30,000 nt of DNA, from NCBI GenBank assembly GCA_013791905.1, contig VMSX01000030.1, forward strand, positions 74,741 through 104,740, written 5' to 3'. Both the position numbers and the translations under genes were made by a program. The notes under the pieces were generated by a model. The model saw only the letters and a list, made by a program, of their open reading frames with translations. It made no database searches and was not told the origin of the DNA. The stretch comes from Rhodocyclaceae bacterium (GTDB lineage Bacteria; Pseudomonadota; Gammaproteobacteria; Burkholderiales; Rhodocyclaceae). This document shows, one piece after another, positions 1,688-27,568 of the stretch. Every line of letters begins with the position of its first letter. Position 1 is the first letter of the stretch.

Positions 1688-3648
1688 GGCTTGAAGGCCG
1701 CCACTCGGCGGCGTAAATCATCAATGGTCAGTGGGGATGGGGCATCGTAACGCAAGCTGGCATACAGCGCAGCAATTGCCTGCATGTCCGCTGCGGTTTC
1801 AGGTAGTGCGGCAGCAACCCGCCGGGCATACTCCTGCGGGCCTTCCCAACTGTGCCGGGCGAGGCCACGTCGCGCCAGTCGGCGCGACAGCTTGCGCCAT
1901 TGCCGTTCTACGGGATCGAGACGTGGCCGGCGATAGAGCATCCAGCCGGCCAGCACCAGCAGCATGATGCCGGAGAGGAGGGCGAGCGTTGCCGTCATGC
2001 TGCGCCAGTCCGGCGCAGCCATGCCCAGCCGTTTGAGAAAGTCGCGCTGCCGCTCCGGGTTGTAGCCGAGCACCCACTGGTTCCAGGCATTGCTGACCGC
2101 CCACCAGCGAAAGCGCGCTTCGCGCAGCCAGTCGAGGCCGCTGCCAGCCAGCCAGGGCAGCGGCTCGCCAGCCGGCACGGCGGCGGCAAGATTCTGTTCG
2201 ATGCGCGCCGGCGCGCTGACGGCAGTGGGATCGACACGCAGCCAGCCCTGACCGTCCAGCCAGACCTCGGCCCAAGCGTGGGCGTCAGTCTGGCGGATCA
2301 CCCAGGTGTCATCGACAGGGTTGCGTTCACCACCCTGGTAACCGGTGACAACGCGTGCCGGCACGCCGGCGGCGCGCATCAGCACGACAAACGAGGCGGC
2401 GAAGTGCTCGCAAAAACCGCGCTTGTAGTCGAACAGGAATTCGTCGGCGACATGCAGGCTCATCAGGGGCGGCTGCAGCGTATAGATAAAGCGCTGCGCA
2501 CGCATGAATTCGATGGCGCGTTGCAGTCGCTGCCGGTCGCTGTCGCCCGCTGCCAGCCAGCTTGCGCCGAGGGCCAGCGTGCGCGGATTGTCCGTGGCCG
2601 GCAGGGCCAGCGCCTCGGCCAGTACCAGACGATTTTCAGGCGGGTAGCGCACGGTCGGTTGCGAATGGAGTTCGTAGCGGATGCGCTCGCGCACCGGTTT
2701 TTTAGCACGGAGCTGGAAGTCCGAAGTGCCCATAACATTGACATTGCCGGTGTCGGCGGGCAGGGCGGTAGGAAATTCAAGCGCGAACAGCCAGGGTTTG
2801 TTGTGCGGCTCCAGCGTGACAGCATAGGCATAGACAGTGCCTTCACTGCGTGGCTGATAAAACAGCCGCTGGTCCATCGACTGGATGCCTGCTTGCCAGT
2901 TGCGGCCTTCCAGACGAGCCAGCACCGGGCCGCGCCAGTAAAGTTCCTGCTTGGGCGGCACCGGGCCGTCGAACTTGGCGCGAAAGGCGATGGCGTCGGA
3001 CTGGATCAGGTTGTTGATCGCGCCGGGCGACATGTTGTCCGACAACCCGGTCAGGCCGCTATGAGCGTCGCTGGGCAAGCCCCACAGTGGGCCGGAGATG
3101 CGCGGAAACAGGACGAACAGGACCAGCATGAAGGGCATGGCCTGTACCAGCAGCAGCCCGGCAAGGCGGAGCAGGCTGGTCGCGCGTGCCTGCGCATCGG
3201 TCAGGCTGGCGAGCGCCGCAGTGGCGATGAGCAGGGTGCCGATCATGGTGAACGCCACCAGGATCGACTGATTCTCGAAAAACTGCGTGAGTGTCAGGAA
3301 ATAGGCGAGCAGCACCACGGCCAGCCCGTCGCGCGGCGCCCGCGCCTCGAGTTGCTTCAGCGCGAGAAAAATCAGCAGCAGCGCCACGCCGGCGCGCTGG
3401 CCGAACAGCGTGCGGTATTCCATCAGCACGCCCGCCGTGCCGGCGAGGCTGACAAAGATCAGCACCCAGCGCGTCGGCAGCGGCTGGCGCCACCAGGCCA
3501 GCGCGGCACGCCAGATGAATGCCGCGCCGGCCACGGCGGCGAGCCATAACGGCACTTGCGGCACCAGCGGCGCGTAAGCCGCCAGCCCCGTCGCCAGCAG
3601 CCACCAGGTCTGCGCCGGGGTGAGCGGGTGAGTGGGTACCTTAGACAT
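1684..3648 (-). CDS. Transglutaminase-like membrane protein (TgpA-type: N-terminal multi-TM region, transglutaminase core, C-terminal TM)
   Basis: Cys-His-Asp core context: GFCEHFAASFVVLMRAAGVPARVVTGYQGG ... DAHAWAEVWLDGQGWLRVDPT. I place the start at ATG 3648 (MSKVPTHPL). The track start at 3771 would read through repeat A1. Confidence 0.85.
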   Translation of the reverse strand: MSKVPTHPLTPAQTWWLLATGLAAYAPLVPQVPLWLAAVAGAAFIWRAALAWWRQPLPTRWVLIFVSLAGTAGVLMEYRTLFGQRAGVALLLIFLALKQLEARAPRDGLAVVLLAYFLTLTQFFENQSILVAFTMIGTLLIATAALASLTDAQARATSLLRLAGLLLVQAMPFMLVLFVLFPRISGPLWGLPSDAHSGLTGLSDNMSPGAINNLIQSDAIAFRAKFDGPVPPKQELYWRGPVLARLEGRNWQAGIQSMDQRLFYQPRSEGTVYAYAVTLEPHNKPWLFALEFPTALPADTGNVNVMGTSDFQLRAKKPVRERIRYELHSQPTVRYPPENRLVLAEALALPATDNPRTLALGASWLAAGDSDRQRLQRAIEFMRAQRFIYTLQPPLMSLHVADEFLFDYKRGFCEHFAASFVVLMRAAGVPARVVTGYQGGERNPVDDTWVIRQTDAHAWAEVWLDGQGWLRVDPTAVSAPARIEQNLAAAVPAGEPLPWLAGSGLDWLREARFRWWAVSNAWNQWVLGYNPERQRDFLKRLGMAAPDWRSMTATLALLSGIMLLVLAGWMLYRRPRLDPVERQWRKLSRRLARRGLARHSWEGPQEYARRVAAALPETAADMQAIAALYASLRYDAPSPLTIDDLRRRVAAFKP

Positions 3649-3658
3649 TGCTTTCGGA

Positions 3659-3806
3659 GCCTTGCCGCCGGGCCGCCCCAAGGCAAGGCGGCACGCGGCG
3701 CCAGCCGCAATCCGCACCCAAGCTTGAATGTGGACGTCCCGTAACAGACGAGCGCAGCGAGCAACAGTCACCTCTCCCGAGAGGGAGGGGCTGGGGGAGG
3801 GCGGGT
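3659..3806 (-). repeat. Structured intergenic repeat, type A, copy A1
   Basis: The plus strand reads GCCTTGCC-gccGGGCCGCCCCAA-GGCAAGGC ... GACGAGCGCAGCGAGCAACAGTCA-CCTCTC..GGGAGG-GGCTGGGGGAGGGCGGG. It fills the whole gap between the DUF58 stop (3807) and the tgpA-like start (3648). Strand is given as the sense in which the C-rich end comes first. Confidence 0.9.
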
Positions 3807-4781
3807 CTAATTTTCATAGAGCGCGAGCGCCTTGAGGCAGGCGTGGGTGTGCTCCGGGCCATGCGCCTGGGGGATATTGCCACCAGGCAAACGCAGGCCC
3901 CAGGACACTCCGGCGGCTTCGGTGTCGAGTACCCAGCGCGTCAATACCGACAGACGTGTTTCGACATCCATGCGCTGCGGCAGCATGTCCCAGTCGAGCC
4001 AGAGCGCCTGTGCAGCCGTGCCGGTGAACTGCTTGGTTTGCAATGGCGCCTCCGGACCTTGTCGCGCGACGGCTTTCCAGGCGACGTGGTGGGGCGGGTC
4101 GCTGGGCTGGTGACGCTTGAGGCCGGCAAAATCCTCATCGCCGCTGTCACCGGGCAGGAGCCCGCCTTCGATGCCACTGAAAGTCGGCGCTGGCGGGACG
4201 GCGCTGGCCGGTTGCGGATAAACCAGGCAGGTCAGGGCAGGCACGGCATAGCTCCAGGCGCGGATCAAACCCAGTGGCCAGAGCGTTTCAATGGTGACGT
4301 GCGGCATGGCGAGCCAGCCGCGATGCGTGGCGGGCTGCGGCAGCAGCACCCGTGCGCTGCCGCCCGGTGGCACGGTCATCGCCATGACCGCCTGTCCGGG
4401 CAGGAACAAGCGCAGCAGATGGCGTGGCCGCGGGTCCGGATTGTGCAGGATCAGCGGAAAGCGCGCGGTGTCGCCGGCAAATACCGGCAGGGCGGCGCCG
4501 ACGGTGATGGAGAGTCCGGCCTGGTTCCGAAAGGTATGCAGGATCGTGGCGACCCCCAGGCCGGCAAGCAGGAAGACCAGACCGTAGCCGAGGCTCAGGT
4601 TGTAATTGATCGCGCCGATCAGCATGACGATCAGCGACACGCCATACAACAGGCCGGCCCGACTCGGCAAGACATAGACGCGGCGCTGCGAGAGGACGAC
4701 GGGCACCGCTTCGGGTGGCCGCACGCGCAGTGCCCAGGCGGTGAAACGGTTGGATAGATTGCGACGCAGAGCAGGCAGCAT
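3807..4781 (-). CDS. DUF58 domain protein (the usual partner of MoxR/TgpA-type genes)
   Basis: Two N-terminal TM helices (LLYGVSLIVMLIGAINYNLSLGYGLVFLLAGLGVATIL). The DUF58-like core is DFAGLKRHQPSDPPHHVAWKAVARQG..LQTKQF. I prefer the start at ATG 4781 (MLPALRRNL). The track start at 4841 would overlap the divergent gene. Confidence 0.75.
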   Translation of the reverse strand: MLPALRRNLSNRFTAWALRVRPPEAVPVVLSQRRVYVLPSRAGLLYGVSLIVMLIGAINYNLSLGYGLVFLLAGLGVATILHTFRNQAGLSITVGAALPVFAGDTARFPLILHNPDPRPRHLLRLFLPGQAVMAMTVPPGGSARVLLPQPATHRGWLAMPHVTIETLWPLGLIRAWSYAVPALTCLVYPQPASAVPPAPTFSGIEGGLLPGDSGDEDFAGLKRHQPSDPPHHVAWKAVARQGPEAPLQTKQFTGTAAQALWLDWDMLPQRMDVETRLSVLTRWVLDTEAAGVSWGLRLPGGNIPQAHGPEHTHACLKALALYEN

Positions 4782-5497: not shown

Positions 5498-5665
5498 CGG
5501 ATTTCAGTTTATTGCAGCAGTCTCGCCGCCGGGCCGCCCCAAGGCGAGACGTCACGCGGCGCCAGCCGCAAACCGCGCCCAAGCTCGACCGGGGGCTCCC
5601 CGTGATAGTCGAGCGTAGCGAGCAACAGTCACCTCCCCGTGAGGGGAGGATGGGAGGGGCGGGCT
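5498..5665 (-). repeat. Structured intergenic repeat, type A, copy A2
   Basis: GTCTCGCC-gccGGGCCGCCCCAA-GGCGAGAC ... GTCGAGCGTAGCGAGCAACAGTCA-CCTCCCC-GTGA-GGGGAGG-ATGGGAGGGGCGGGC. It fills the convergent gap from the stop at 5497 and overlaps about the last 11-12 codons of the HicA-like gene. Confidence 0.9.
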
Positions 5666-5937
5666 CTTTCCGCTTCGTACGCCGATACGCTGATGCCGGC
5701 ATGGGTGAGGAATTCCCGCAGGTGCTTGATGTCCTGCCGGTTGAAGACGCTGCCCTGGTGTGGATGGTGCAGGAAGTATTCGTGGTGGTTGAGCAGCACG
5801 CGAAACCGCGCGCCATGCACCGGTTCGACCGATGCGCCGAGATGATTCAACAGCGACTCGATCTCCCTCCAGTGGATATTGGCGCTGACAGGTTCCTGAA
5901 ACAGACTGCGCAACAGATGCAGATGTTTATGGCTCAT
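5629..5937 (-). CDS. HicA-family toxin-like protein (orphan, no HicB partner seen)
   Basis: 102 aa from ATG 5937: MSHKHLHLLRSLFQEPVSANIHWREIESLLNHLGASVEPVHGARFRVLLNHHEYFLHHPHQ..DIKHLREFLTHAGI. This matches my recollection of the YcfA/HicA pattern (..I.W.dieaL...LGa......gs......g....fHrPHp....k..v..vr.fL...G). The track start at 6060 reads through repeat B1 and the tRNA. Confidence 0.6.
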   Translation of the reverse strand: MSHKHLHLLRSLFQEPVSANIHWREIESLLNHLGASVEPVHGARFRVLLNHHEYFLHHPHQGSVFNRQDIKHLREFLTHAGISVSAYEAERARPSHPPLTGR

Positions 5938-5940
5938 GAT

Positions 5941-6025
5941 CGTGCCTCCGTAGGGCCGCCCCCAAGGGGACACGCGCCCCCCTGTGGGGGCAGCGAGTCG
6001 ATGTTGCGAGCGTGGGGGGCCATTA
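5941..6025 (-). repeat. Structured intergenic repeat, type B, copy B1
   Basis: The plus strand reads CGTGCCTCC-gtaGGGCCGCCCCCAA-GGGGACACG, then GCCCCC-ctgt-GGGGGC-AGCGAG..TGTTGCGAGCGTGGGGGGCCATTA. It lies between the tRNA-Ser 3' end (6033) and the hicA-like ATG (5937). Confidence 0.9.
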
Positions 6026-6032
6026 TTTCTCC

Positions 6033-6122
6033 TGGCGGAGGTGGTGAGATTCGAACTCACGAACGCCTTGCGACGTTGCCGGTTTTCAAGACCGGTGCAT
6101 TCAACCGCTCTGCCACACCTCC
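6033..6122 (-). tRNA. tRNA-Ser (anticodon UGA)
   Basis: The 90-nt minus-strand sequence is GGAGGTGTGGCAGAGCGGTTGAATGCACCGGTCTTGAAAACCGGCAACGTCGCAAGGCGTTCGTGAGTTCGAATCTCACCACCTCCGCCA. Acceptor stem GGAGGTG/CACCTCC, anticodon stem CCGGT/ACCGG with loop CTTGAAA, long variable arm, T-arm GTGAG-TTCGAAT-CTCAC, encoded CCA. Confidence 0.95.
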
Positions 6123-9591: not shown

Positions 9592-10017
9592 GTTTCGCGG
9601 CCCAAAAAGGACACAAAAAATCAGTCTGTTGAGGCGTTTTCGCGGGTAAATCCACCCCATTGTGATTGTTGCATCGCAACAAAACTACCGATTCAGGGGG
9701 GTTGACTTGACGTCAATCAGGGTTCCTTCCCCACCCCATGCGGGATATGAAAAGTTTTGTCTATAACCAAAGAAAAAAAACTACTCAGTCAGGGTAGGGT
9801 GATGGTCAGCCGGGTCAAAAAAACAGCTGTTTTTTCGCTAGCGAAGCATTCGATGCAAGCGACCAAGACATTTTCGGAAACCAGCAACGCCAACCCTGTG
9901 CTGCGCAAGCTGCGGCTGGATAATCCGTCTGGGATGTGCTTTTCGGCACCGGAGGATGCCAGCTGACGAGGCATCCTCTCGGCGTTGCAGGAAGTTCAGA
10001 GCGCCCGGCTAACCGCT

Positions 10018-11218: not shown

Positions 11219-13909
11219 ATGAACTACGAACAGCATTATCTGACCTCTCTCTTCGAGCCGAAATCGATCGCCATCATCGGCGCTTCCGAGACGCCGGGGT
11301 CAATTGGCAGCATCATGGTGCGCAATATCATCGATGGTGCCTTTCCGGGGCGGCTTTTTCTGGTCAACCCGGGCCATGACAAGGTTTTCGGTCAACGGGC
11401 CTACGCTTCGGTCGAGGATATCCCCCAGCGGCTCGATTTGGCGGTGATCTGTACCAAGGCTGAAACGGTGCCGGCCATAATAGATACCTGCGGTCGCGCC
11501 GGCACGCGCAACGCCATCATCATTTCCGGTGGTTTTGCCGAAATGGGTCCACGCGGCGCCAGTTTGTTTCGCTCCATGCTGGAAAGTGCGCGCCGCCACA
11601 ATGTGCGTCTGCTTGGCCCCAACAGCCTCGGCTTGATTCGCCCCGGCAGTTGCGTGAACGTCACCTTCGCGCACAGCAGCGCCAACCCCGGCACGGTCGG
11701 CCTGATCTCCCAGTCCGGTGCGCTCTGCACGGCGATTCTCGACTGGGCGCAGCCCAATAATGTCGGGTTTTCCAACGTCGTTTCGCTGGGTGCCGAGAGC
11801 GATGTGGACTTTGGCGAAGTGCTCGACTACATGGTCGCCGACTCCCGCACCGAAAACATTTTTCTTTACATCGAGGGCATCAAGAACGCGCGGCGCTTCA
11901 TGAGTGCGCTGCGCGCAGCAGCGCGTTGCAAGCCGGTGCTGCTGATCAAGGGCGGGCGCAACCCCGCCGGCAAGCAGGCCGCGCTGTCGCATAGCGGTGC
12001 CTTGCTCGGCTCCGACGACGTCTTCGATGCGGCATTGCGGCGTGCCGGCGTGGTGCGGCTGGGCAATGTCGGCCAGATGTTCGCCGCCGCCCAGGCCCTG
12101 TTCTCGCATTTCCGTCCGCGCGGCAATCGCCTGATGATCGTCACCAACGGCGGTGGTCTCGGCGTGATGGCGGCTGACCATGCTGCCGACATCGGCATTC
12201 CATTGGCCGCGATGTCTGAAGCCACCCTCAAACGCCTGAATGAAGCCTTGCCACCGACCTGGTCGAAAGCCAATCCGATTGACCTGGTTGGCGATGCCGA
12301 TCCGGCGCGTTATGCCAGCACGATCACCGCCTGTCTCGAAGATGACGGGGTCGATGGTGTGCTGGCGATCCTCGCACCGCAGGCGCTGGCCGATCCGACG
12401 CAGACTGCCCGTGCCGTCATTGAGGTGGCGAAAAAGACCGACAAGCCGCTGGTGACCTGCTGGATGGGTGAAGAGCAGGTGCGTGAGGCACGTCTGCTGT
12501 TCCAGGGGGCCGGCATTCCCACCTTCCGGACGACGGATCCTGCCGTCGAACTGTTCTCGCACATTTCCAACTACTACCGCAACCAGCAATTGCTGATGCA
12601 GGCGCCGGCATCGATTTCCGATCACACGCCGCCACGCCTGGAATCGGCGCGCCTGGTGATCGAATCCGCCCTGGCCGAAGGCCGCAAGTCGCTCAACGAA
12701 ATGGAATCGAAGGCCCTGCTGGCGGCCTTCCGCATTCCCATTGCCCAGACGGTGGTGGCGCGCTCGCCTTCCGAAGCCATGGTGCTGGCCGAGGAAATGG
12801 GCCTGCCGGTGGTGATGAAGATCGATTCGCCGCAAATCACCCATAAACTGGATTCGGGCGGTGTGCGCCTCAATCTCAATGCGCTGGTCGCCGTACGCGA
12901 TGCCTACAACCAGATCATCGACGAGGTGAAGAAGAATCGGCCCGATGCGGTCATTCATGGCATCGCCATCGAGCCGATGATCCAGAAGGCCAATGGTCGC
13001 GAACTGATGGTCGGCATGACGAAGGATCCGATTTTCGGTCCGACCGTCATCTTTGGCCCCGGCGGGGCGGGTATCGTGGCCAGCGGCAAGGATCGTGCAG
13101 TTGCCCTGCCACCGCTCAACCGTTTTCTGGTTGCCGATATGCTGGCGTCCACCCGCACCTCGGCACGGCTCGGCGAATTCCGCAACATGCCGCCGGTCAG
13201 CATGGAGGCGCTGGAAGCCGTGCTGCTGCGTGTTTCCGAGATGGTCTGCGAATTGCCCTGGATTCAGGAACTGGACATCAATCCGCTGATCGTCGATGAG
13301 AATGGCGCGGTCGCCGTCGATGCCCGCGTCGTCATCGACAATCTGTCGCTGACTGCCGGGCGCTACGATCACATGGTGATCCACCCCTACCCGTCGCACC
13401 TGGTCACGGAATACCAGGCCAAGGACGGCCGCACTGTCGTGATTCGTCCGATCAGTCCGGAAGATGGCGACCTGGAACAGGACTTCGTCAAGAACCTGTC
13501 GGCAGAAACCAAGTATTTCCGTTTCATGAACACCCTGCGCGAACTGTCACAGGCCCAGTTGGTGCGTCTGACGCAGATCGACTACGACCGCGAAATGGCT
13601 TTCGTCGCCTTGACCGAGGTGGATGGATGTCAGATTGAAGTCGGCGTGGCGCGTTATGCCATGAACCCCGATGGCGAATCCTGCGAATTTGCCGTGGTCG
13701 TCGCCGATGACTGGCAGGGCAAGGGACTGGCGCGCCGGTTGATGGGCGTGATCATCGATACGGCCCGTTCGCGCGGCATCAAGTTCATGAACGGCGATTT
13801 CCTCGCTGAAAACCGCCGCATGATCAAGTTTGTTTCCGGCCTCGGCTTCGTGCTCTCGCCGCATCCCGAAGACCCCGGCCTCAAGCGCGGCGTGCTGGTG
13901 CTTAATTGA
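11219..13909 (+). CDS. pat: Protein lysine acetyltransferase, Pat/PatZ architecture (NDP-forming acyl-CoA synthetase-like domains plus C-terminal GNAT)
   Basis: 896 aa. N-terminal CoA-binding region (KSIAIIGASETPGSIG..), a central ATP-grasp-like region, and C-terminal GNAT motif A (VVADDWQGKGLARRLM). Confidence 0.85.
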   Translation: MNYEQHYLTSLFEPKSIAIIGASETPGSIGSIMVRNIIDGAFPGRLFLVNPGHDKVFGQRAYASVEDIPQRLDLAVICTKAETVPAIIDTCGRAGTRNAIIISGGFAEMGPRGASLFRSMLESARRHNVRLLGPNSLGLIRPGSCVNVTFAHSSANPGTVGLISQSGALCTAILDWAQPNNVGFSNVVSLGAESDVDFGEVLDYMVADSRTENIFLYIEGIKNARRFMSALRAAARCKPVLLIKGGRNPAGKQAALSHSGALLGSDDVFDAALRRAGVVRLGNVGQMFAAAQALFSHFRPRGNRLMIVTNGGGLGVMAADHAADIGIPLAAMSEATLKRLNEALPPTWSKANPIDLVGDADPARYASTITACLEDDGVDGVLAILAPQALADPTQTARAVIEVAKKTDKPLVTCWMGEEQVREARLLFQGAGIPTFRTTDPAVELFSHISNYYRNQQLLMQAPASISDHTPPRLESARLVIESALAEGRKSLNEMESKALLAAFRIPIAQTVVARSPSEAMVLAEEMGLPVVMKIDSPQITHKLDSGGVRLNLNALVAVRDAYNQIIDEVKKNRPDAVIHGIAIEPMIQKANGRELMVGMTKDPIFGPTVIFGPGGAGIVASGKDRAVALPPLNRFLVADMLASTRTSARLGEFRNMPPVSMEALEAVLLRVSEMVCELPWIQELDINPLIVDENGAVAVDARVVIDNLSLTAGRYDHMVIHPYPSHLVTEYQAKDGRTVVIRPISPEDGDLEQDFVKNLSAETKYFRFMNTLRELSQAQLVRLTQIDYDREMAFVALTEVDGCQIEVGVARYAMNPDGESCEFAVVVADDWQGKGLARRLMGVIIDTARSRGIKFMNGDFLAENRRMIKFVSGLGFVLSPHPEDPGLKRGVLVLN

Positions 13910-13910
13910 A

Positions 13911-14099
13911 CCATCCCCCCGCCCCCCTTCCCCGGGAAGGGGGTGGCTGTGGTTCACTGCGCTCGAATATTATGGGCGACTCCGTTGCGACGGTGGTGCG
14001 GCTTGCGCCTGAGGCGCGTGTCCTCACGGCTTGGGGCGGCCCGGCGCCGTGACTGAGCCAAGCGGTGAAATTACAAAAGTCGGCGCTGACAAGACGGCG
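13911..14099 (+). repeat. Structured intergenic repeat, type A, copy A3 (with flank extension)
   Basis: The plus strand is the C-rich-first sense: CCATCCCCCCG-CCCCCTTCC-ccg-GGAAGGGGG..CACTGCGCTCGAA ... TCACGGC-TTGGGGCGGCCCGGC-GCCGTGA, then GGTGAAATTACAAAAGTCGGCGCTGACAAGACGGCG. That last stretch is homologous to the flank of A5. The copy starts 1 nt after the pat stop and overlaps the 5' end of tag. Confidence 0.85.
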
Positions 14100-14657
14100 C
14101 GTTGCGCCTGGTGTGGCGTTGATCCGCTCTATGTCGCCTATCACGACAATGAGTGGGGCGTGCCCTGCCATGACGAGCGCACGCTGTTTGAGTTCCTCAT
14201 CCTCGAAGGCGCGCAGGCCGGACTATCGTGGATCACCATCCTGAAGAAACGCGAGAACTATCGGCGTACCTTTGATGGCTTCGACGTGCAGAAGATTGCC
14301 CGCTACGGCGAGACAGACTTGGCGCGCCTGCTCGGCGATGCCGGCATCGTCAGAAACCGCCTGAAAATATCTGCCGCAATTAACAATGCCCGCGCCACGC
14401 TGGCGCTTTACGACGCTGGCTCAAGTCTTGATGCGCTGTTCTGGCAGTTCGTCGACAACGCCCCGGTCATCAATCGCTGGCAGCGACTCGACGAAGTGCC
14501 CGTCCATACGCCCGTTGCCGTCGCACTGGCCAAGGAACTCAAGCAGCGTGGCTTCCGCTTCGTCGGCCCGACGGTAATTTATTCGCACATGCAGGCGACC
14601 GGCATGGTGAACGACCATCTCGTCACCTGCCCGCGCCACGTTGCGCTGGGCGGTTGA
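14049..14657 (+). CDS. tag: DNA-3-methyladenine glycosylase I
   Basis: RCAWCGVDPLYVAYHDNEWGVPCHDERTLFEFLILEGAQAGLSWITIL is classic Tag. The only in-frame starts before the conserved RC are GTG 14049 and TTG 14031, and both lie inside repeat A3. Confidence 0.88.
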   Translation: MTEPSGEITKVGADKTARCAWCGVDPLYVAYHDNEWGVPCHDERTLFEFLILEGAQAGLSWITILKKRENYRRTFDGFDVQKIARYGETDLARLLGDAGIVRNRLKISAAINNARATLALYDAGSSLDALFWQFVDNAPVINRWQRLDEVPVHTPVAVALAKELKQRGFRFVGPTVIYSHMQATGMVNDHLVTCPRHVALGG

Positions 14658-14664
14658 AGGCGTA

Positions 14665-15066
14665 CTAAGCGGCGCGCGGTTCTATGTGCGTGCGTAGCCA
14701 AGCGGCGAATTCGGCTTCCGGAAGTTCGCCGGCGGCGAGGTCCAGCATGGTGACGACGCACTCGGCATCTCCTGCAACCAGGTCGTAGCCGTTAAGCGCC
14801 AGAAACAGTTCAGTCGCAATTAGCGCAGTACGCTTGTTGCCATCGACGAAGGGATGGTTGCGGACGATGCCGAATCCATATGTTGCAGCGAGTGCGGCGA
14901 CATCGGGATCGTCATAGGCAGCAAGGTTCTCAGCCCGGGCCAACGCGGAATCAAGCAAGCCGGCGTCGCGGGTTCCCGCAGCTCCGCCATGCTCGGCCAA
15001 TTGTGCGCTGTGGGCGGCAATGATCACATTCCGTTGAATCCATACCCAGCGGCTCTCAAGAAACAC
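14665..15066 (-). CDS. doc: Doc (death-on-curing, Fic-fold) toxin
   Basis: ..RWVWIQRNVIIAAHSAQLAEHGG..GIVRNHPFVDGNKRTALIATELFLALNG contains the Fic/Doc motif HxFxDGNKR. The start is either GTG 15066 (MFLESRWVW) or TTG 15081 (track). Both lie within the hairpin of repeat B3. Confidence 0.85.
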   Translation of the reverse strand: MFLESRWVWIQRNVIIAAHSAQLAEHGGAAGTRDAGLLDSALARAENLAAYDDPDVAALAATYGFGIVRNHPFVDGNKRTALIATELFLALNGYDLVAGDAECVVTMLDLAAGELPEAEFAAWLRTHIEPRAA

Positions 15067-15142
15067 GCCGGGCCGTCCCAAGTGTTTCTTGGCCCCTTGA
15101 GGGGAGAACCGAGCGCAGCGAATGTTTGCGGGGTGGGCTCAT
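15056..15142 (-). repeat. Structured intergenic repeat, type B, copy B3 (most diverged)
   Basis: The plus strand reads CAAGAAACAC-gccGGGCCGTCCCAA-GTGTTTCTTG-GCCCCTTGAGGGG..GAGCGCAGCGAATGTTTGCGGGGTGGGCTCAT. It occupies the whole antitoxin-toxin junction. Confidence 0.8.
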
Positions 15143-15420: not shown

Positions 15421-18000
<2,580 letters not shown>

Positions 18001-20365: not shown

Positions 20366-20369
20366 GATT

Positions 20370-20508
20370 CCTTCCCCCGCCCCCTCCCATGTGAGGGGGT
20401 GAAGTTCCTCGCTGCGCTCGCTTGTTACGGGGTGGTTTTGTTCCTGTCGGGAGCGGGTTGCGGCTTCGCCGCGTGCCGTCCTACCTTGGGGCGGCCCGGC
20501 GGCAGGAC
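20370..20508 (+). repeat. Structured intergenic repeat, type A, copy A4
   Basis: The plus strand is the C-rich-first sense: CCTTCCCCCG-CCCCCTC-ccatgt-GAGGGGG..CCTCGCTGCGCTCGCT ... GTCCTACC-TTGGGGCGGCCCGGC-GGCAGGAC. It starts 4 nt after the phasin stop. A degenerate flank extension (CACAAAGGTCGCTGCG) may reach about 20551. Confidence 0.85.
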
Positions 20509-20554
20509 TGTACTGTTATTCCTTTACCGTTAGGCCTTCACAAAGGTCGCTGCG

Positions 20555-21061
20555 TTAATCCGGTTGCCAGCGTTTTGCAGCGAGGTCGTCTGTCGTGCGC
20601 GCATCGACCCAGCGGCCCCCCTCCGGGGTCTCTTCCTTTTTCCAGAACGGTGCCTGGGTCTTGAGATAGTCCATGATGAATTCGCAGGCGGCGAAGGCGT
20701 CGCCGCGATGCGCGGAGGAAACCCCGACAAAGACGATGCGTTCGCCTGGTAGCAGGCGGCCGACGCGATGGATGACGCGCACCGTGCGCAGTTCCCAGCG
20801 TTTTTGCGCAGCAGCCACGATGTCGGCCAGCGCCTGTTCGGTCATGCCGGGGTAGTGTTCCAGCGTCATCGCCGTTACTGCGGCGGGGCGCTCCGGCTGT
20901 GACGCCGTCTCGCCAGAGCCGGCTTTTTGCTCAGCCAGTTTGTCGGCGCGAACCAGGCCGACGAAGCTGGCGACCGCGCCCGCCATGGGATCTGCGGCGC
21001 TTAGCGCGGCGATCTCGGTGCCGACATCAAAATCGGCAACCTGGACGCTAACCTCTTTCAT
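20555..21061 (-). CDS. moaE: Molybdopterin synthase catalytic subunit
   Basis: ASFVGLVR..TLEHYPGMTE..VGVSSAHRGDAFAACEFIMDYLKTQAPFWKKE. I place the start at ATG 21061 (MKEVSVQV). The track start at 21082 lies inside repeat B2. Confidence 0.9.
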   Translation of the reverse strand: MKEVSVQVADFDVGTEIAALSAADPMAGAVASFVGLVRADKLAEQKAGSGETASQPERPAAVTAMTLEHYPGMTEQALADIVAAAQKRWELRTVRVIHRVGRLLPGERIVFVGVSSAHRGDAFAACEFIMDYLKTQAPFWKKEETPEGGRWVDARTTDDLAAKRWQPD

Positions 21062-21164
21062 GCCCTCGCAGGGCCGCCCCAAGAGGGCATGCGCCCCCCG
21101 TCACCGCTTCGGGTGATTTCATGGGGGGCAGCGAGCTGTTTATTGCGAGCGTGGGGGGCCATTA
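21059..21164 (-). repeat. Structured intergenic repeat, type B, copy B2
   Basis: The plus strand reads CATGCCCT-cgcaGGGCCGCCCCAAG-AGGGCATG, then GCCCCCC-(GTCACCgcttcgGGTGAt..)-GGGGGGC-AGCGAG..TTGCGAGCGTGGGGGGCCATTA. It fills the moaD-moaE junction. Confidence 0.9.
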
Positions 21165-21165
21165 A

Positions 21166-24404: not shown

Positions 24405-26389
24405 CAAACAAGCTCCGCCTCAAAAAAAGCTTCGACATCGGCCAGTTCCCGGCTGCGTCGCATCGGTGGCAAGGACTGCCAGATGCGGCGGCCATAGGAT
24501 TTGCCGATCAGCCGCGGGTCGCACACCATCAGCACGCCGCGGTCGACTTCGTCGCGGATCAGGCGCCCGGCGCCCTGTTTCATGCTGATGACGGCACGCG
24601 GCAACTGTACCTCGAAAAACGCATTGCGGCCCTGCTGTTTCAGGCTGTCGATGCGTGCCGCCAGCACCGGATCGTCCGGCGGGGCGAACGGCAGCTTGTC
24701 GATCACCACCAGCGAAAGCGCCGCGCCACGGACATCGACGCCTTCCCAGAAACTCTGGCTGGCCACCAGCACGGCATTGCCTAGTTGGCGGAAGCGGTCG
24801 AGCAGTTCCGACTTCGAGCATTCGCCCTGCAGCAGCAGCGGCATCTCGGCGCCGGCCGCGGCAATCCGGGTGGCCAGCAACTCGTGGATGCGGCGCATGG
24901 CGCGCAGCGAGGTGCACAGCACGAAGGCGCCGCCGCGCGCTGCGCTCGACGCGCGAATGACCGGCCAGGCGGCTTCGACCACCGCTTCCGAATAATCGGG
25001 ATGGTTCGGCTCGGGCAAGCCCTGCGGGCAATACAGCAAGGCGTTCGCCGGGTAGTCGAAGGGACTGTCCCAGCGGCCCGTCGTCGCCTCGCTCAAGCCC
25101 AGCGCCTGCTGGTAATGGCTGAAATCGCTGCCGACCGCGAGCGTCGCCGAGGTGAATATCCAGGCGCGCGGATGGCCTTCCAGTTGGCGGCGAAAGATGT
25201 TGGCCACTGACAGCGGCGTGAGATTCAGGGTCACTGCATAGGTGCCGACCTCGACCCAGCGCACGTAAATCTCTTCTACATCACTTGTAGTCGCCGTTCC
25301 GCCAGCGCCGACTTTCTGTGTCTGCCAGTGTCGCAGTTGAAAAATGGTTTCACCACAGCGGCGCAGGCAGTTGGCGAGGCCTTCGGAACGTCCGGCCTGG
25401 CTTTCGATATGCTTGTTCAACTCGTCCAGCGTGCCTTGCAATTCCGCCAGCGCCGCTACCGCCGCCTCGTGCGTTTGCCACTGGGCGAACGACAGCCGCA
25501 TGCCTTCGTGCTTGAATGCCAGGCGCAGATCCTTGGTGGCTTTTTCCAGCGCGCGCGCGGCGTCCTGCAGCGGCGTGTAGTCCTTGGCGGCGGCGATGCC
25601 TTCCAGCTTCACGTCGCGCGCCAGATCGAGCAGCTGGCCGGTGCCGATGGCCTCGCCGAAAAACAGGCCGGCGACCTCGGGCAACTGGTGGGCCTCGTCG
25701 AAGATGACGGTATTGCAGGCCGGCAGCAGTTCGCCCATGCCGTCGTCCTTGAGCATGACATCGGCGAAAAACAGATGGTGATTCACCACCACCACATCGG
25801 CGGCCAGCGCCTCGCGGCGGGCGGCCACCACAAAGCATTCCTTGACGTAGGCGCATTCCTGGCCGAGGCAGTTGTCGCGTGTCGAGGTGGCCAGCGGCCA
25901 GGCGCCGGAATCGTCCGGCACGTCGCGGCACTCGGCCTTGTCGCCGGTCGCCGTCGCTTTGGCGAAGCGGGCGATGGCATTCAGGTGGATGACTTCGGCG
26001 CGTGAATTGAGTCGCCCGCCGGCCAGCGACCGTTCGAGGTGATACGGGCAGACGTAATTCGAACGCCCCTTCAACAGCGCCACTGTCGCCGGCACGCCCA
26101 GCGCTTTCCGCACGGTCGGCAGGTCGCGGTTGAAGAGCTGGTCCTGCAGGGTCTTGGTGCCGGTGGAAATGATCACCTTGCCACCGGACAATAGCGCGGG
26201 CGCCAGGTAGGCAAAGGTCTTGCCCGTGCCGGTACCCGCTTCGGCGATCAGCAGATCGTTGGCTTCGATGGCGGCGAGAACCCGGCGTGCCATATCGACC
26301 TGCTGATCGCGCAGGCGGTAACCTTCAATGGCCCGCGCGAGCGGTCCATCGGCAGCGAAGAGGCGTTCGAGATCAGGTTTGGCAGGCAT
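24404..26389 (-). CDS. dinG: ATP-dependent DNA helicase, DinG/YoaA family (Fe-S, XPD-like)
   Basis: Walker A EAGTGTGKTFAYL, DEAH box VIFDEAHQL, a Cys cluster (NYVCPYH .. AECRD .. DNCLGQECAYVKEC), and C-terminal QGAGRLIRDE. Confidence 0.88.
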   Translation of the reverse strand: MPAKPDLERLFAADGPLARAIEGYRLRDQQVDMARRVLAAIEANDLLIAEAGTGTGKTFAYLAPALLSGGKVIISTGTKTLQDQLFNRDLPTVRKALGVPATVALLKGRSNYVCPYHLERSLAGGRLNSRAEVIHLNAIARFAKATATGDKAECRDVPDDSGAWPLATSTRDNCLGQECAYVKECFVVAARREALAADVVVVNHHLFFADVMLKDDGMGELLPACNTVIFDEAHQLPEVAGLFFGEAIGTGQLLDLARDVKLEGIAAAKDYTPLQDAARALEKATKDLRLAFKHEGMRLSFAQWQTHEAAVAALAELQGTLDELNKHIESQAGRSEGLANCLRRCGETIFQLRHWQTQKVGAGGTATTSDVEEIYVRWVEVGTYAVTLNLTPLSVANIFRRQLEGHPRAWIFTSATLAVGSDFSHYQQALGLSEATTGRWDSPFDYPANALLYCPQGLPEPNHPDYSEAVVEAAWPVIRASSAARGGAFVLCTSLRAMRRIHELLATRIAAAGAEMPLLLQGECSKSELLDRFRQLGNAVLVASQSFWEGVDVRGAALSLVVIDKLPFAPPDDPVLAARIDSLKQQGRNAFFEVQLPRAVISMKQGAGRLIRDEVDRGVLMVCDPRLIGKSYGRRIWQSLPPMRRSRELADVEAFFEAELV

Positions 26390-26441: not shown

Positions 26442-26638
26442 CGCCGTCCAGCCAGCGCCGACTTTTCTGATTTAACCCTCCCCAACTGTAGCCTTGCCGC
26501 CGGGCCGCCCCAAGGCAAGGCGGCACGCGGCGCCAGCCGCAAACCGCACCGCTACCAGAACAAAGCTCCGCGTGATAGACGAGCGCAGCGAGCAACAGTC
26601 ACCTCCCCCGTGAGGGGGAGGATGGGAGGGGGCGGGGC
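26442..26638 (-). repeat. Structured intergenic repeat, type A, copy A5 (with flank extension)
   Basis: The plus strand reads CGCCGTCCAGCCAGCGCCGACTTTTCTGATTTAACC..GCCTTGCC-gccGGGCCGCCCCAA-GGCAAGGC ... GACGAGCGCAGCGAGCAACAGTCA-CCTCCCCC-GTGA-GGGGGAGG-ATGGGAGGGGGCGGGGC. It ends directly against the cysK stop codon (26639). Confidence 0.9.
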
Positions 26639-27568
26639 TTAGACTTCAAGATGCTGGTAGAGCACTGTCGAGAGATAACGTTCGCCAAACGACGGAATGA
26701 TGACGACGATCAGCTTGCCCGCGCTCTCCGGGCGCTTGGCGACTTCGAGCGCGGCCCATACTGCCGCGCCGGAGGAGATGCCGACCAGCAGGCCTTCCTC
26801 GGTCGCCATGCGGCGCGCGGTGGTCAGCGCGTCGTCGTTCTTCACGCGGATGGTCTCGTCGTAGATCTTGGTATTGAGGATGGCGGGCACGAATCCGGCG
26901 CCGATGCCCTGGATCGGATGCGGGCCGCGCTGACCACCCGACAGCACCGGGCTGGCATCGGGCTCGACGGCGATGATCTTGACCTGCTTTTTGGCCTTCA
27001 GCACTTCACCGACGCCGGTGATTGTGCCGCCGGTGCCCACGCCGGAAATGAAGATGTCGACCTGACCATCGGTGTCGCGCCAGATTTCCTCGGCGGTGGT
27101 CTTCCTGTGGATGTCCGGGTTTGCCGGGTTTTCGAACTGCTGCGGGATGAAGTAGCGCGCGTCGGCCGCCGCCAGTTCCTCGGCTTTCTTGATCGCGCCG
27201 GGCATGCCCTCCGGTCCGGGCGTGAGGATCAGTTCGGCGCCATAGGCCTTGAGCAGTAGTTTGCGCTCGCGGCTCATGGTTTCGGGCATGACGAAGGTGG
27301 CCTGGTAGCCGCGCGCCGCGCAGACCATCGCCAGGCCGATGCCGGTGTTGCCCGAGGTCGGCTCCAGAATGATGGTGTCGGGCTTGATCTTGCCGGCCTT
27401 CTCGGCGGCATCGATCATCGCCATGGCGATGCGGTCCTTGACGCTCCCCGCCGGGTTGAAGAATTCGAGCTTCAGCGCGATCGTCGCGCTGTTGTCGGCA
27501 TTCATGCGGTTGAGGCGAACCAGCGGCGTGTGGCCGATCAGTTCGATGATATCGTTCGCGATTTGCAT
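26639..27568 (-). CDS. cysK: Cysteine synthase A (O-acetylserine sulfhydrylase)
   Basis: 309 aa. Motifs: [21 protein letters not shown] (PLP lysine), [22 protein letters not shown]. Confidence 0.93.

Follow-up and report, generated by a model that had tools for sequence, protein, structure and literature searches.

The gene tag, which encodes DNA-3-methyladenine glycosylase I, lies in a 30,000-nt stretch of Rhodocyclaceae DNA (the window, to whose positions all numbering refers) directly behind a short structured repeat, A3; the tag piece examined runs from 13,911 to 14,657. Alignment with relatives shows A3 and the 20-nt linker behind it (13910-14075) to be inserted DNA, which came in where tag originally started and displaced the tag body by 166 nt, and the evidence supports the view that every possible tag start, namely TTG 14031, GTG 14049 and the non-canonical ATT 14070, sits in the inserted DNA. 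We consider the following course of events probable as a whole, with appreciable room for doubt: an ancestral tag was coupled to the upstream gene by a TTGA overlap, A3 and the linker inserted there, the start codon now lies inside the insert, and it is reached by a relay of translation across the repeat. The insertion and the loss of the old start are established by the comparison with relatives; the start in use and the relay mechanism are inferred.

An insertion at the pat-tag junction

The upstream gene, here called pat (11219-13909), encodes an 896-aa acyl-CoA synthetase/GNAT protein with the Pfam domains ATP-grasp_5, Succ_CoA_lig and Acetyltransf_1, and in the list of open reading frames (ORFs) it ends with the stop codon TGA at 13907..13909 on the + strand. 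The same gene precedes tag in the related loci L001, L003, L004 and L081-L089, L002 being the exception in that another gene is found there. At the junctions that are free of A elements (L001, L003, L004, L084-L089), the tag start overlaps or abuts the pat stop and 2-10 residues precede a conserved Arg-Cys pair, A3 being absent at the orthologous junction in nine relatives. The L084-L086 junction reads ...CTGAATTGAAAGTCGGCGCTGGCACCACGGCGCGCTGT (AATTGAAAGTCGGCGCTGG...ACGGCGCGCTG), with a TTG overlapping the pat TGA and a Tag that begins (TTG)M-KVGAGTTA-RC; L087 and L088 have TGA ATG GCG AAAGTC..., giving MAKVGADPTARC; L001 has TGA, a 24-nt motif (motif B, see below) that here forms the pat-tag spacer, and AAGGCG ATG GCG CGC TGC; L003 has TGA, 10 nt and GTG GCG CGC TGC; and L004 and L089 again use overlapping TTG starts, with 4 and 2 residues, respectively, between the initiator and Arg-Cys.

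In the window the ancestral TTG (13906..13908, +) still overlaps the pat stop as TTGA, embedded in the same AATTGA that serves as the tag start in L084-L086, L004 and L089, and yet it has been orphaned: from TTG 13906 to the Arg codon there are 194 nt, that is 2 mod 3, so the old start is intact but its frame with tag is lost. An A element stands directly 3' of AATTGA not only in the window but also in L090 (a 97.2% identical strain), L081 and L082, and the insertion is common to the window and L081/L082 at a dS of about 0.43; the species-representative genome closest to the window is a Sterolibacteriaceae metagenome-assembled genome (MAG). An earlier reading of the window from its letters alone (the sequence-only reading) had proposed that the element landed at the original tag start, which is borne out by the A-free relatives, where the pat stop meets the tag start at that very site.

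The pat-tag junction is, moreover, a site of start-codon turnover. In L081 (3052-3084) and L082 (10001-10033) an extra 33 nt 3' of motif B, in part a duplicate of its 3' half, creates the TTG start used by NCBI; in L001 an extra 12 nt (9992-10003) 3' of the motif carries a new ATG; and in L083 a different A-like insert, with a C-rich box and no terminal hairpin, lies upstream of an intact ATG. A metagenome scan with a pattern of linker plus B yielded other B copies only and no further pat-tag junctions.

The tag gene that was thus displaced has been maintained. Its conserved body, from Arg-Cys to the stop (14100..14657, +), has 120 close homologues, and PF03352 (Adenine_glyco) is precomputed for an identical protein, P0001. 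Among the best homologues about 20 of 120 begin M(A)KVGAxxTA-RC and 68 of 120 have six or fewer residues before Arg-Cys. In searches against the Protein Data Bank, Tag matches the solved TAG structures (E = 5e-64 for 2OFI and 4e-62 for 1LMZ, with chain residues 3-182 covered; 2OFK aligned too) from Arg-Cys, their residues 3-4, onward, which agrees with the M-x-R-C N-terminus given by the sequence-only reading. Cys4 of E. coli TAG is the N-terminal Cys of its zinc site, and the window protein aligns at all four zinc-ligand positions of that enzyme; because this Cys at residue 4 of the TAG chains aligns with Arg-Cys, the start must lie upstream of 14100. The ORF is intact over 186 conserved codons. 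Between the window and L090, both of which carry the insert and have no later start, there are 16 synonymous and 5 non-synonymous changes (dN/dS 0.09), and dN/dS is 0.13 against L082. Purifying selection on an insert-bearing tag means that some start inside 13910-14075 must be used; on this comparative evidence, tag must still be functional, maintained and translated from inserted DNA. With all possible starts in the insert, the earlier proposal that the element now provides the initiation region of tag is likewise upheld.

Candidate starts and a putative ribosome relay

Read in the frame of tag, the codons from 14031 to 14105 are TTG GGG CGG CCC GGC GCC GTG ACT GAG CCA AGC GGT GAA ATT ACA AAA GTC GGC GCT GAC AAG ACG GCG CGT TGC. 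The nearest upstream in-frame stop is TGA 14010, the only canonical in-frame starts 5' of Arg-Cys (14100-14105) are TTG 14031 and GTG 14049, and from 14052 to the Arg-Cys at 14100 there is not a single in-frame ATG, GTG or TTG, just as had been claimed for the interval behind GTG 14049. Both canonical codons also lie where they had been placed, within the terminal hairpin of A3 (14024..14052, +; 5' arm TCACGGCTTGGG, loop GCGG, 3' arm CCCGG(C)GCCGTGA; centroid fold -19.4 kcal/mol), the TTG paired in the 5' arm and the GTG paired in the 3' arm, in GCCGTGA.

Annotation of this region is discordant, with three gene callers assigning three tag lengths to one DNA. TTG 14031..14033 (+) is a JGI call of 208 aa (P0001); GTG 14049..14051 (+) is the start in Prodigal-type calls of 202 aa (P0127 and P0128; ENA, Logan, JGI); and the ATT at 14070-14072, within the linker of uncertain origin (AGCCAAGCGGTGAAATTACA, 14056..14075, +), is the start in the NCBI record of 195 aa (P0121, MTKVGADKTARC). 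The NCBI annotation of both tag and doc (see below) was read from identical DNA, contig JAHIHT010000017.1 of GCA_018898765.1 (a Rhodocyclaceae MAG). The N-terminal peptide predicted for initiation at TTG 14031 is fMet-GRPGAVTEPSGEITK, the protein from that codon starting MGRPGAV. No convincing Shine-Dalgarno (SD) sequence was found at any candidate start by anti-SD duplex scoring, which did not discriminate among the candidates, and a scan of 13600-14300 for sigma-70 promoters and intrinsic terminators found no site.

We tentatively favor GTG 14049 as the start actually used, with a confidence just short of even, because the stop of a potential relay ORF overlaps it and a ribosome terminating there would have opened the hairpin. 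This ORF of 48 codons (13906..14052, +), found in the ORF list, leads from the orphaned TTG, whose initiation context is the one that drives Tag synthesis in relatives, across A3 to TGA 14050-14052, which shares GTGA with GTG 14049. The proposed course of events is then as follows. In the ancestor, tag would have been translationally coupled to pat through a TTG start overlapping the pat stop (TTGA), followed by KVGAxxTA-Arg-Cys encoded by motif B. The ~145-nt A3 and the ~20-nt linker would have inserted right behind TTGA, so that the tag body was shifted 166 nt downstream and lost its frame with the old start. Ribosomes would nowadays start at the orphaned TTG 13906, cross A3 in the 48-codon frame and melt the hairpin, terminate at TGA 14050-14052 on GTG 14049, and re-initiate there. 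Tag translated from GTG 14049 would be longer by 17 residues, of which the first 9 (VTEPSGEIT) come from the insert and the other 8 (KVGADKTA) are ancestral. Since this GTG is paired in the hairpin and has no good SD sequence, we infer that it would be reached by coupling.

GTG 14049, with which the relay stop overlaps, is kept in L081, L082 and L090. The A3 of L090 has a 1-nt deletion, by which the relay ORF is shifted to the other open frame, ending 5 nt further at the TGA equivalent to 14054-14056; the relay frame thus stays open despite the indel, and coupling would be preserved. In the window this second open frame through A3 is an element-internal ORF (13943..14056, +), running from GTG 13943/13949 to TGA 14054-14056, and an element ORF that ends just past GTG 14049, as the sequence-only reading had described, is therefore present.

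Two further junctions in the window resemble that of tag. First, a short A-type element of ~84 nt (15055..15138, -), detected by an apical-motif search, sits on the overlap of the phd stop and the doc start, and NCBI calls doc from 15066. Whereas this junction in L082 is AAGTGAGTCGC, a GTG/TGA overlap (GTGA) with no insert, the window has AAATGA, the 84-nt element and then AGCCGCTGG. The only in-frame starts of the toxin gene doc are GTG 15066, in the 3' arm of the hairpin, and TTG 15081, the conserved N-terminus of Doc, SRW(V/I)W, follows directly, and a 28-codon relay ORF extends from an orphaned ATG 15142 to TGA 15058-15056, 8 nt after GTG 15066. Second, the same search revealed an A-type insert of ~100 nt (21062..21165, -) reaching from the moaD stop (21168-21166) to the moaE ATG 21061, where in the relatives L082 and L087 the two genes are only 1-5 nt apart. 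The 3' arm of the hairpin contains ATG 21061, and a relay ORF of 34 codons that begins at ATG 21162 has its stop at TGA 21060-21058, ending in ATGA (21061-21058) on the moaE start. Loss of the moaD stop with a C-terminal extension of MoaD was considered for this junction and ruled out, as moaD ends at 21168-21166 and the hairpin is within the ~100-nt insert. The overlap expected for termination-reinitiation is accordingly seen as GTGA at 14049-14052 and as ATGA at 21061-21058, with a TGA 8 nt after GTG at 15066.

Several observations nevertheless weigh against this scheme. The rough probability that three relays, at tag, doc and moaE, occur jointly by chance (0.008) is a post hoc statistic, and at 70% GC an open frame is nothing unusual (P about 0.46-0.59 for each). 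The hairpin in which GTG 14049 is paired has about -19 kcal/mol, and the one SD-like sequence available to this codon, GGGGCGG (-6.2 kcal/mol), does not surpass those of its rivals. The NCBI start ATT 14070 aligns with the ATG of MAKVGA-type orthologues. In L081/L082 the relay ORF is not kept; it ends there after 28 codons, and these genomes have a TTG start 3' of B instead. Of the nine codons derived from the insert, four differ between the window and L082, all of them non-synonymously, and nothing in these alignments shows either constraint on the insert-derived peptide or its translation. Finally, L089, which is close to L082, is without both A and B, which makes a composite A+B indel possible in that lineage.

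The first alternative is that Tag starts at ATT 14070, in the length class of the MAKVGAxxTARC orthologues, the hairpin codons being an untranslated leader; we regard this as unlikely, if a serious contender. Under it, the ATT would be a decayed ATG or else part of a long form of B (TTACA + B), and TTACA does precede B in many unrelated metagenome copies. Besides being the annotated NCBI start, ATT 14070 occupies the position of the ATG in L087 and L083 (ATG GCG AAA GTC), lies outside the hairpin with GGTGA just 5' of it, and is conserved in strain L090. However, ATT initiates in E. coli with roughly 1% or less of the efficiency of ATG, and very few natural ATT starts are known (infC, pcnB). 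In addition, GGTGA is 1-2 nt from the ATT, too close for an SD sequence, and L081/L082 have GTT instead, so that not all members of the clade with the insertion keep this codon as a start. Even if ATT 14070 were used, the start would still come from the insert, as the TTG-overlap relatives lack this DNA too.

A second alternative concerns the origin of the extension rather than the codon. Motif B (AAAGTCGGCGCTGACAAGACGGCG, 14076..14099, +) encodes KVGADKTA, the ancestral Tag N-terminus, and is a member of a dispersed, family-wide motif. Had A, the linker and B moved as one composite unit, the whole 17-residue extension would be element-borne, which we find improbable. It is true that A3 and another copy of the repeat, A5, are each followed by B at a similar distance, in the same orientation and with a similar linker (GGTGAAATTACA in A3 vs GGTTAAATCAGA in A5), such that 14064-14099 matches the A5 flank 26442-26477 over 36 nt with 83% identity, and that L089 lacks A and B together, unlike its close relative L082. 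Yet B abuts Arg-Cys in the same register in the A-free, distant L084-L088 and in L083 with its different insert, and it stands in the pat-tag spacer of the A-free L001. Furthermore, at least 35 of the 40 B copies in the family have no A nearby, 4 of 6 full or short window A copies have no B, and the TTG-ACG-GAG-CGT of L089 can be read as a B cut to its last two codons. B must be translated in L084-L086, which have no other start; since it is the Tag N-terminus without A in these loci and a spacer in L001, B at this junction predates A and has been kept whether coding or not.

From these alignments B is a repeat family independent of the A element and not an A flank, its separate origin being as well established as the insertion. 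The sequence-only reading had thus been right about the event and its direction and had over-attributed the extension to the element. The similarity that it saw between the flanks of A3 and A5 is real, but the flank is the separate repeat B; and in the ~17-residue extension that it derived from the repeat, the 9 residues VTEPSGEIT come from the insert, whereas the 8 residues KVGADKTA are encoded by B and present in A-free relatives. Its expectation that orthologues without A would lack the extension held in so far as they have 2-10 residues before Arg-Cys, and failed for the KVGA half, which the A-free L084-L087 carry.

Third, Tag could start directly at TTG 14031, which gives the longest ORF (208 aa, the JGI call); this, too, we think quite improbable. 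Behind the in-frame stop at 14010, TTG 14031 is the first canonical start of the tag frame, and the TTG of the apical hairpin motif is in frame with the downstream start in four of four cases: tag, doc, moaE and the gene downstream of the repeat copy A1. However, this TTG is paired in the hairpin 5' arm, has no purine-rich SD upstream, where the sequence is CCTCACGGC, and adjoins no upstream ORF stop; being within the invariant apical motif of all copies, its presence needs no translational explanation. What the estimates for GTG, ATT and TTG leave over falls to some other codon, or to none. In particular, a tag silenced or decaying because the insertion abolished translation would fit the lack of a start with a convincing ribosome-binding site and of a promoter-like site in the insert, but it is very improbable given the intact ORF of 186 conserved codons, the dN/dS of 0.09 between two strains with the same arrangement, the alignment of all four zinc-ligand positions of E. 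coli TAG, and an insertion old enough to be common to L081/L082 (dS about 0.43) with no lesion accumulated.

The A repeat and motif B

A3 (13910..14055, +), a repeat of ~145 nt that aligns with A1, A2, A4, A5 and the L082 copy, consists of a C-rich box with a hairpin, a conserved core GCTGTGGTTCACTGCGCTCG, a middle hairpin and the terminal hairpin. The 30-kb window contains five full and two short copies of the family; those placed by alignment besides A3 are A1 (3658-3808, -), A2 (5519-5669, -), A4 (about 20367-20512, +) and A5 (26490-26639, -). At six basal pairs of the terminal hairpin both partners have changed in a compensatory way across six copies, whereas the apical CTTGGG-GCGG-CCCGGCG is invariant, and the apical part CTTGGGGCGGCCCGGCG is kept in 13 copies from the window and relatives and in 49 IMG/VR stretches. 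Only this covariation in the alignment was informative about structure, the single-sequence fold of the whole region being indistinguishable from shuffles (z = -1.15). Compared with the A2-type stem TCTCGCC/GGCGAGA, the A3 stem TCACGGC/GCCGTGA has two compensated changes, one of which turns GAG into GTG. Orthologues of the A3 hairpin (14024-14052) have transitions that convert Watson-Crick pairs into G-U/G-T wobbles, two in L090 and one in L082; such changes, few as these events are, would keep the hairpin in RNA better than in DNA.

The hairpin is associated with ORF starts beyond the three junctions described above. An ORF of at least 80 codons starts no more than 25 nt after the apical motif in 27 of 67 hairpin copies, as opposed to 10 of 67 in a mirror control (Fisher p = 0.002), and AGGGGG usually stands before the copies. 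Stem subfamilies recur, such as GCATGCCC/GGGCATG(ATG) and CAAGAAACA/TGTTTCTTGAG, the latter identical to the window doc copy, and the start codon is thus a heritable part of the element in some subfamilies. That the variable stems might be inverted copies of the target was ruled out, identical stems (CAAGAAACA/TGTTTCTTG and GCATGCCC/GGGCATG) recurring in unrelated contigs. Master-like A copies contain, in the 3' arm of their first hairpin, GGAGGTGA, a perfect complement of the 16S rRNA 3' end. One might go as far as to propose that the A repeat, beyond being tolerated, is a portable module for translation initiation and coupling at operon stop/start junctions of hosts and phages, open to ribosomes that come from the upstream gene and carrying or evolving a start codon in the 3' arm of a hairpin whose invariant apex (CUUGGG-GCGG-CCCGG, bulged C) is recognized by a trans-acting factor, a proposal that we hold to be improbable.

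As to its mobility, the window copies of A begin 0-3 nt 3' of the stop of a co-oriented upstream gene, A2 running over the stop instead, and the left flanks (TTGA|A, ATGA|G, CTAA|G, TTAG|A, AGAG|, TGA|T, GTTG|) are T-R-A-R-like but loose. Presence is polymorphic: A3 occurs in L082 and is absent in its close relative L089, and the doc copy occurs in the window and is absent in L082. No terminal inverted repeats are evident in the A alignment, and possible 3-5-nt target duplications (TGA, ATG, GAGCC) are inconsistent across the copies. Rfam 15 at gathering score found only a tRNA at 6036-6122 in the window and no family for A, and BLAST of an A copy against plasmids gave no match. No TnpA/RAYT-type transposase is among the ORFs examined in the 30-kb window, no search aimed at RAYT having been made. 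The A and B motif sequences are absent from the full-text literature searched, and a broader literature search on MITEs (miniature inverted-repeat transposable elements) and start codons gave nothing usable. A is small, non-coding, multi-copy and polymorphic between relatives, as MITEs are, and it departs from REP/BIME in its unit of ~150 nt, made up of three different hairpins plus an unpaired core that is conserved, and in occurring as single copies in one orientation relative to the upstream gene. In its behavior A resembles the non-autonomous elements with hairpin ends, such as REP, PATE or MITE, and we assign it to no named family.

Two other copies touch neighboring genes. An ORF upstream of A2 (5629..6060, with a weak HicA-like match) enters the element at 5629-5669 (-) and has its TGA inside the conserved GGAGGTGACTG; as aligned, this ORF seems to owe its C-terminal tail and its stop codon to A2, of which there is an orthologous copy in L082. 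The terminal hairpin of A1 (3648-3700, -) ends 10 nt before ATG 3648 of a TgpA-like transglutaminase gene.

Motif B has the consensus AAAGTCGGCGCYGRC-NNN-ACGGCG. At up to three mismatches there are six copies in the window, compared with none in 100 shuffles (4180-4203, +; 14076-14099, +; 16426-16449, -; 20903-20926, -; 25292-25315, -; 26442-26465, -), four of them far from any A element, and further copies occur in L001-L004 and L082-L087. In nine loci of the family, 191 kb in all, 40 copies were counted, or about 1 per 5 kb, with sharp boundaries and a variable centre, and there are none in 76 loci of other taxa (L005-L080). The motif is read in one frame, as KVGA(G/D)xTA, in tag, clpB, moaE and a DinG-like helicase gene, and it stands in frame at orthologous sites of the conserved genes clpB, moaE, moeA, an MFS gene and tag, being non-coding in places. 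In clpB it occupies the same place in seven of seven genomes, an island within the most variable linker, and it retains AAA and GCT, both rare codons, whereas the invariant Lys and Ala on either side are encoded by AAG and GCC/GCG. Host coding copies with gene calls are mostly sense and in one frame, whereas at least 120 IMG/VR stretches contain B with no frame preference in viral contigs. Classing of strand and frame by the longest stop-free frame proved unreliable in 60-70% GC DNA, as it mislabelled known tag copies as antisense, and was dropped.

A phage gene that recurs in L116, L126, L127, L132, L133, L140, L147 and further IMG/VR loci has the ending ...AQPRLFEDA-KVGAGDTA-VQGDMLLPANA, B being embedded near its C-terminus. 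The copy at 14500-14523 of L084 coincides with a native VLKxGAxxT segment of an AMP-binding enzyme, a coincidence which suggests that B can arise by point mutation in compatible coding sequence, besides insertion. A sigma-54 promoter, an ops-like element, a Chi-like octamer, a tRNA 3'-end relic and a G-quadruplex were each considered for B and rejected, their required positions falling in the variable centre or in uninformative flanks.

Relation to known systems

Rickettsia palindromic elements (RPE) are reportedly selfish repeats inserted in protein-coding genes. A3 resembles them in being short (~100-150 nt), structured, multi-copy and, on our reading, translated within a conserved host protein that survives it. 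Unlike RPE, which lie in frame inside ORFs, A3 is found on a stop/start junction, breaks the frame and would give the start codon and nine codons; there is no sequence similarity, and the host of A is a betaproteobacterial lineage with its phages. The Correia elements (CREE) of Neisseria and the ERIC and REP/BIME repeats of enterobacteria are intergenic repeats that change the expression of their neighbors. A is, like them, dispersed, hairpin-forming, predicted to be co-transcribed with its flanks and polymorphic between close relatives. However, A shows neither the 26-bp terminal inverted repeats of Correia elements nor their TA duplication, and REPs are palindromes of 20-40 nt as opposed to ~150 nt for A. 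To our knowledge there is no case of Correia, ERIC or REP elements systematically placing a downstream start in a hairpin arm.

The non-autonomous elements derived from IS200/IS605 (PATEs, REP/RAYT) are hairpin-ended. A seems to share with them hairpins at its ends, the lack of terminal inverted repeats and a single orientation beside a short target, its copies beginning 0-3 nt after T-R-A-R-like stop sequences (TTGA|, ATGA|, CTAA|G, TTAG|A); it differs from PATEs in its loose target rule, and its copies show no consistent target duplication. Termination-reinitiation and hairpin-masked starts are known from the trpB-trpA UGAUG and from the MS2 coat-replicase junction. The GTGA and ATGA overlaps at tag and moaE, with the start in a stable hairpin that an upstream-translating ribosome could open, are of the same kind, except that the upstream ORF at tag would be an accidental frame through a mobile repeat rather than a gene. 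For motif B, the appropriate comparison is with over-represented genomic motifs such as DNA uptake sequences (DUS/USS) and the cyanobacterial HIP1. Like these, B is family-specific, highly over-represented, conserved at orthologous sites, both coding and non-coding, and present in phage contigs, and it sits in tolerant parts of proteins in a preferred frame; unlike these, it is 24 nt long and bipartite, occurs about once per 5 kb and not once per kb, and appears to be strongly sense-biased in host genes.

Taken together, remodelling of gene ends by repeat insertions is already a known kind of event. What is new beyond the known cases, as far as can be told, is the systematic placement of start codons in a hairpin with a conserved apex, the relay ORFs, and the co-resident 24-nt motif embedded in coding sequence; these two sequence families of Rhodocyclaceae/Sterolibacteriaceae and their phages, a hairpin repeat enriched at ORF starts and an in-frame 24-nt motif, are apparently undescribed. 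The pat-tag junction offers a clean and datable example of a selfish repeat that landed on a stop/start overlap and orphaned the start, with the gene rescued by a start within the repeat, and relatives show intermediate and alternative rescues, by a new TTG after the motif in L081/L082 and by a new ATG in L001. It also exposes a problem of annotation, given that three pipelines predict three N-termini for one DNA. If the relay is true, operon translation can survive a 150-nt insertion. If, in addition, the A hairpin did act as a portable module, unrelated genes, tag, doc and moaE among them, would be under one shared translational control, and B would add a second nucleic-acid signal, shared across the family and embedded in coding sequence.

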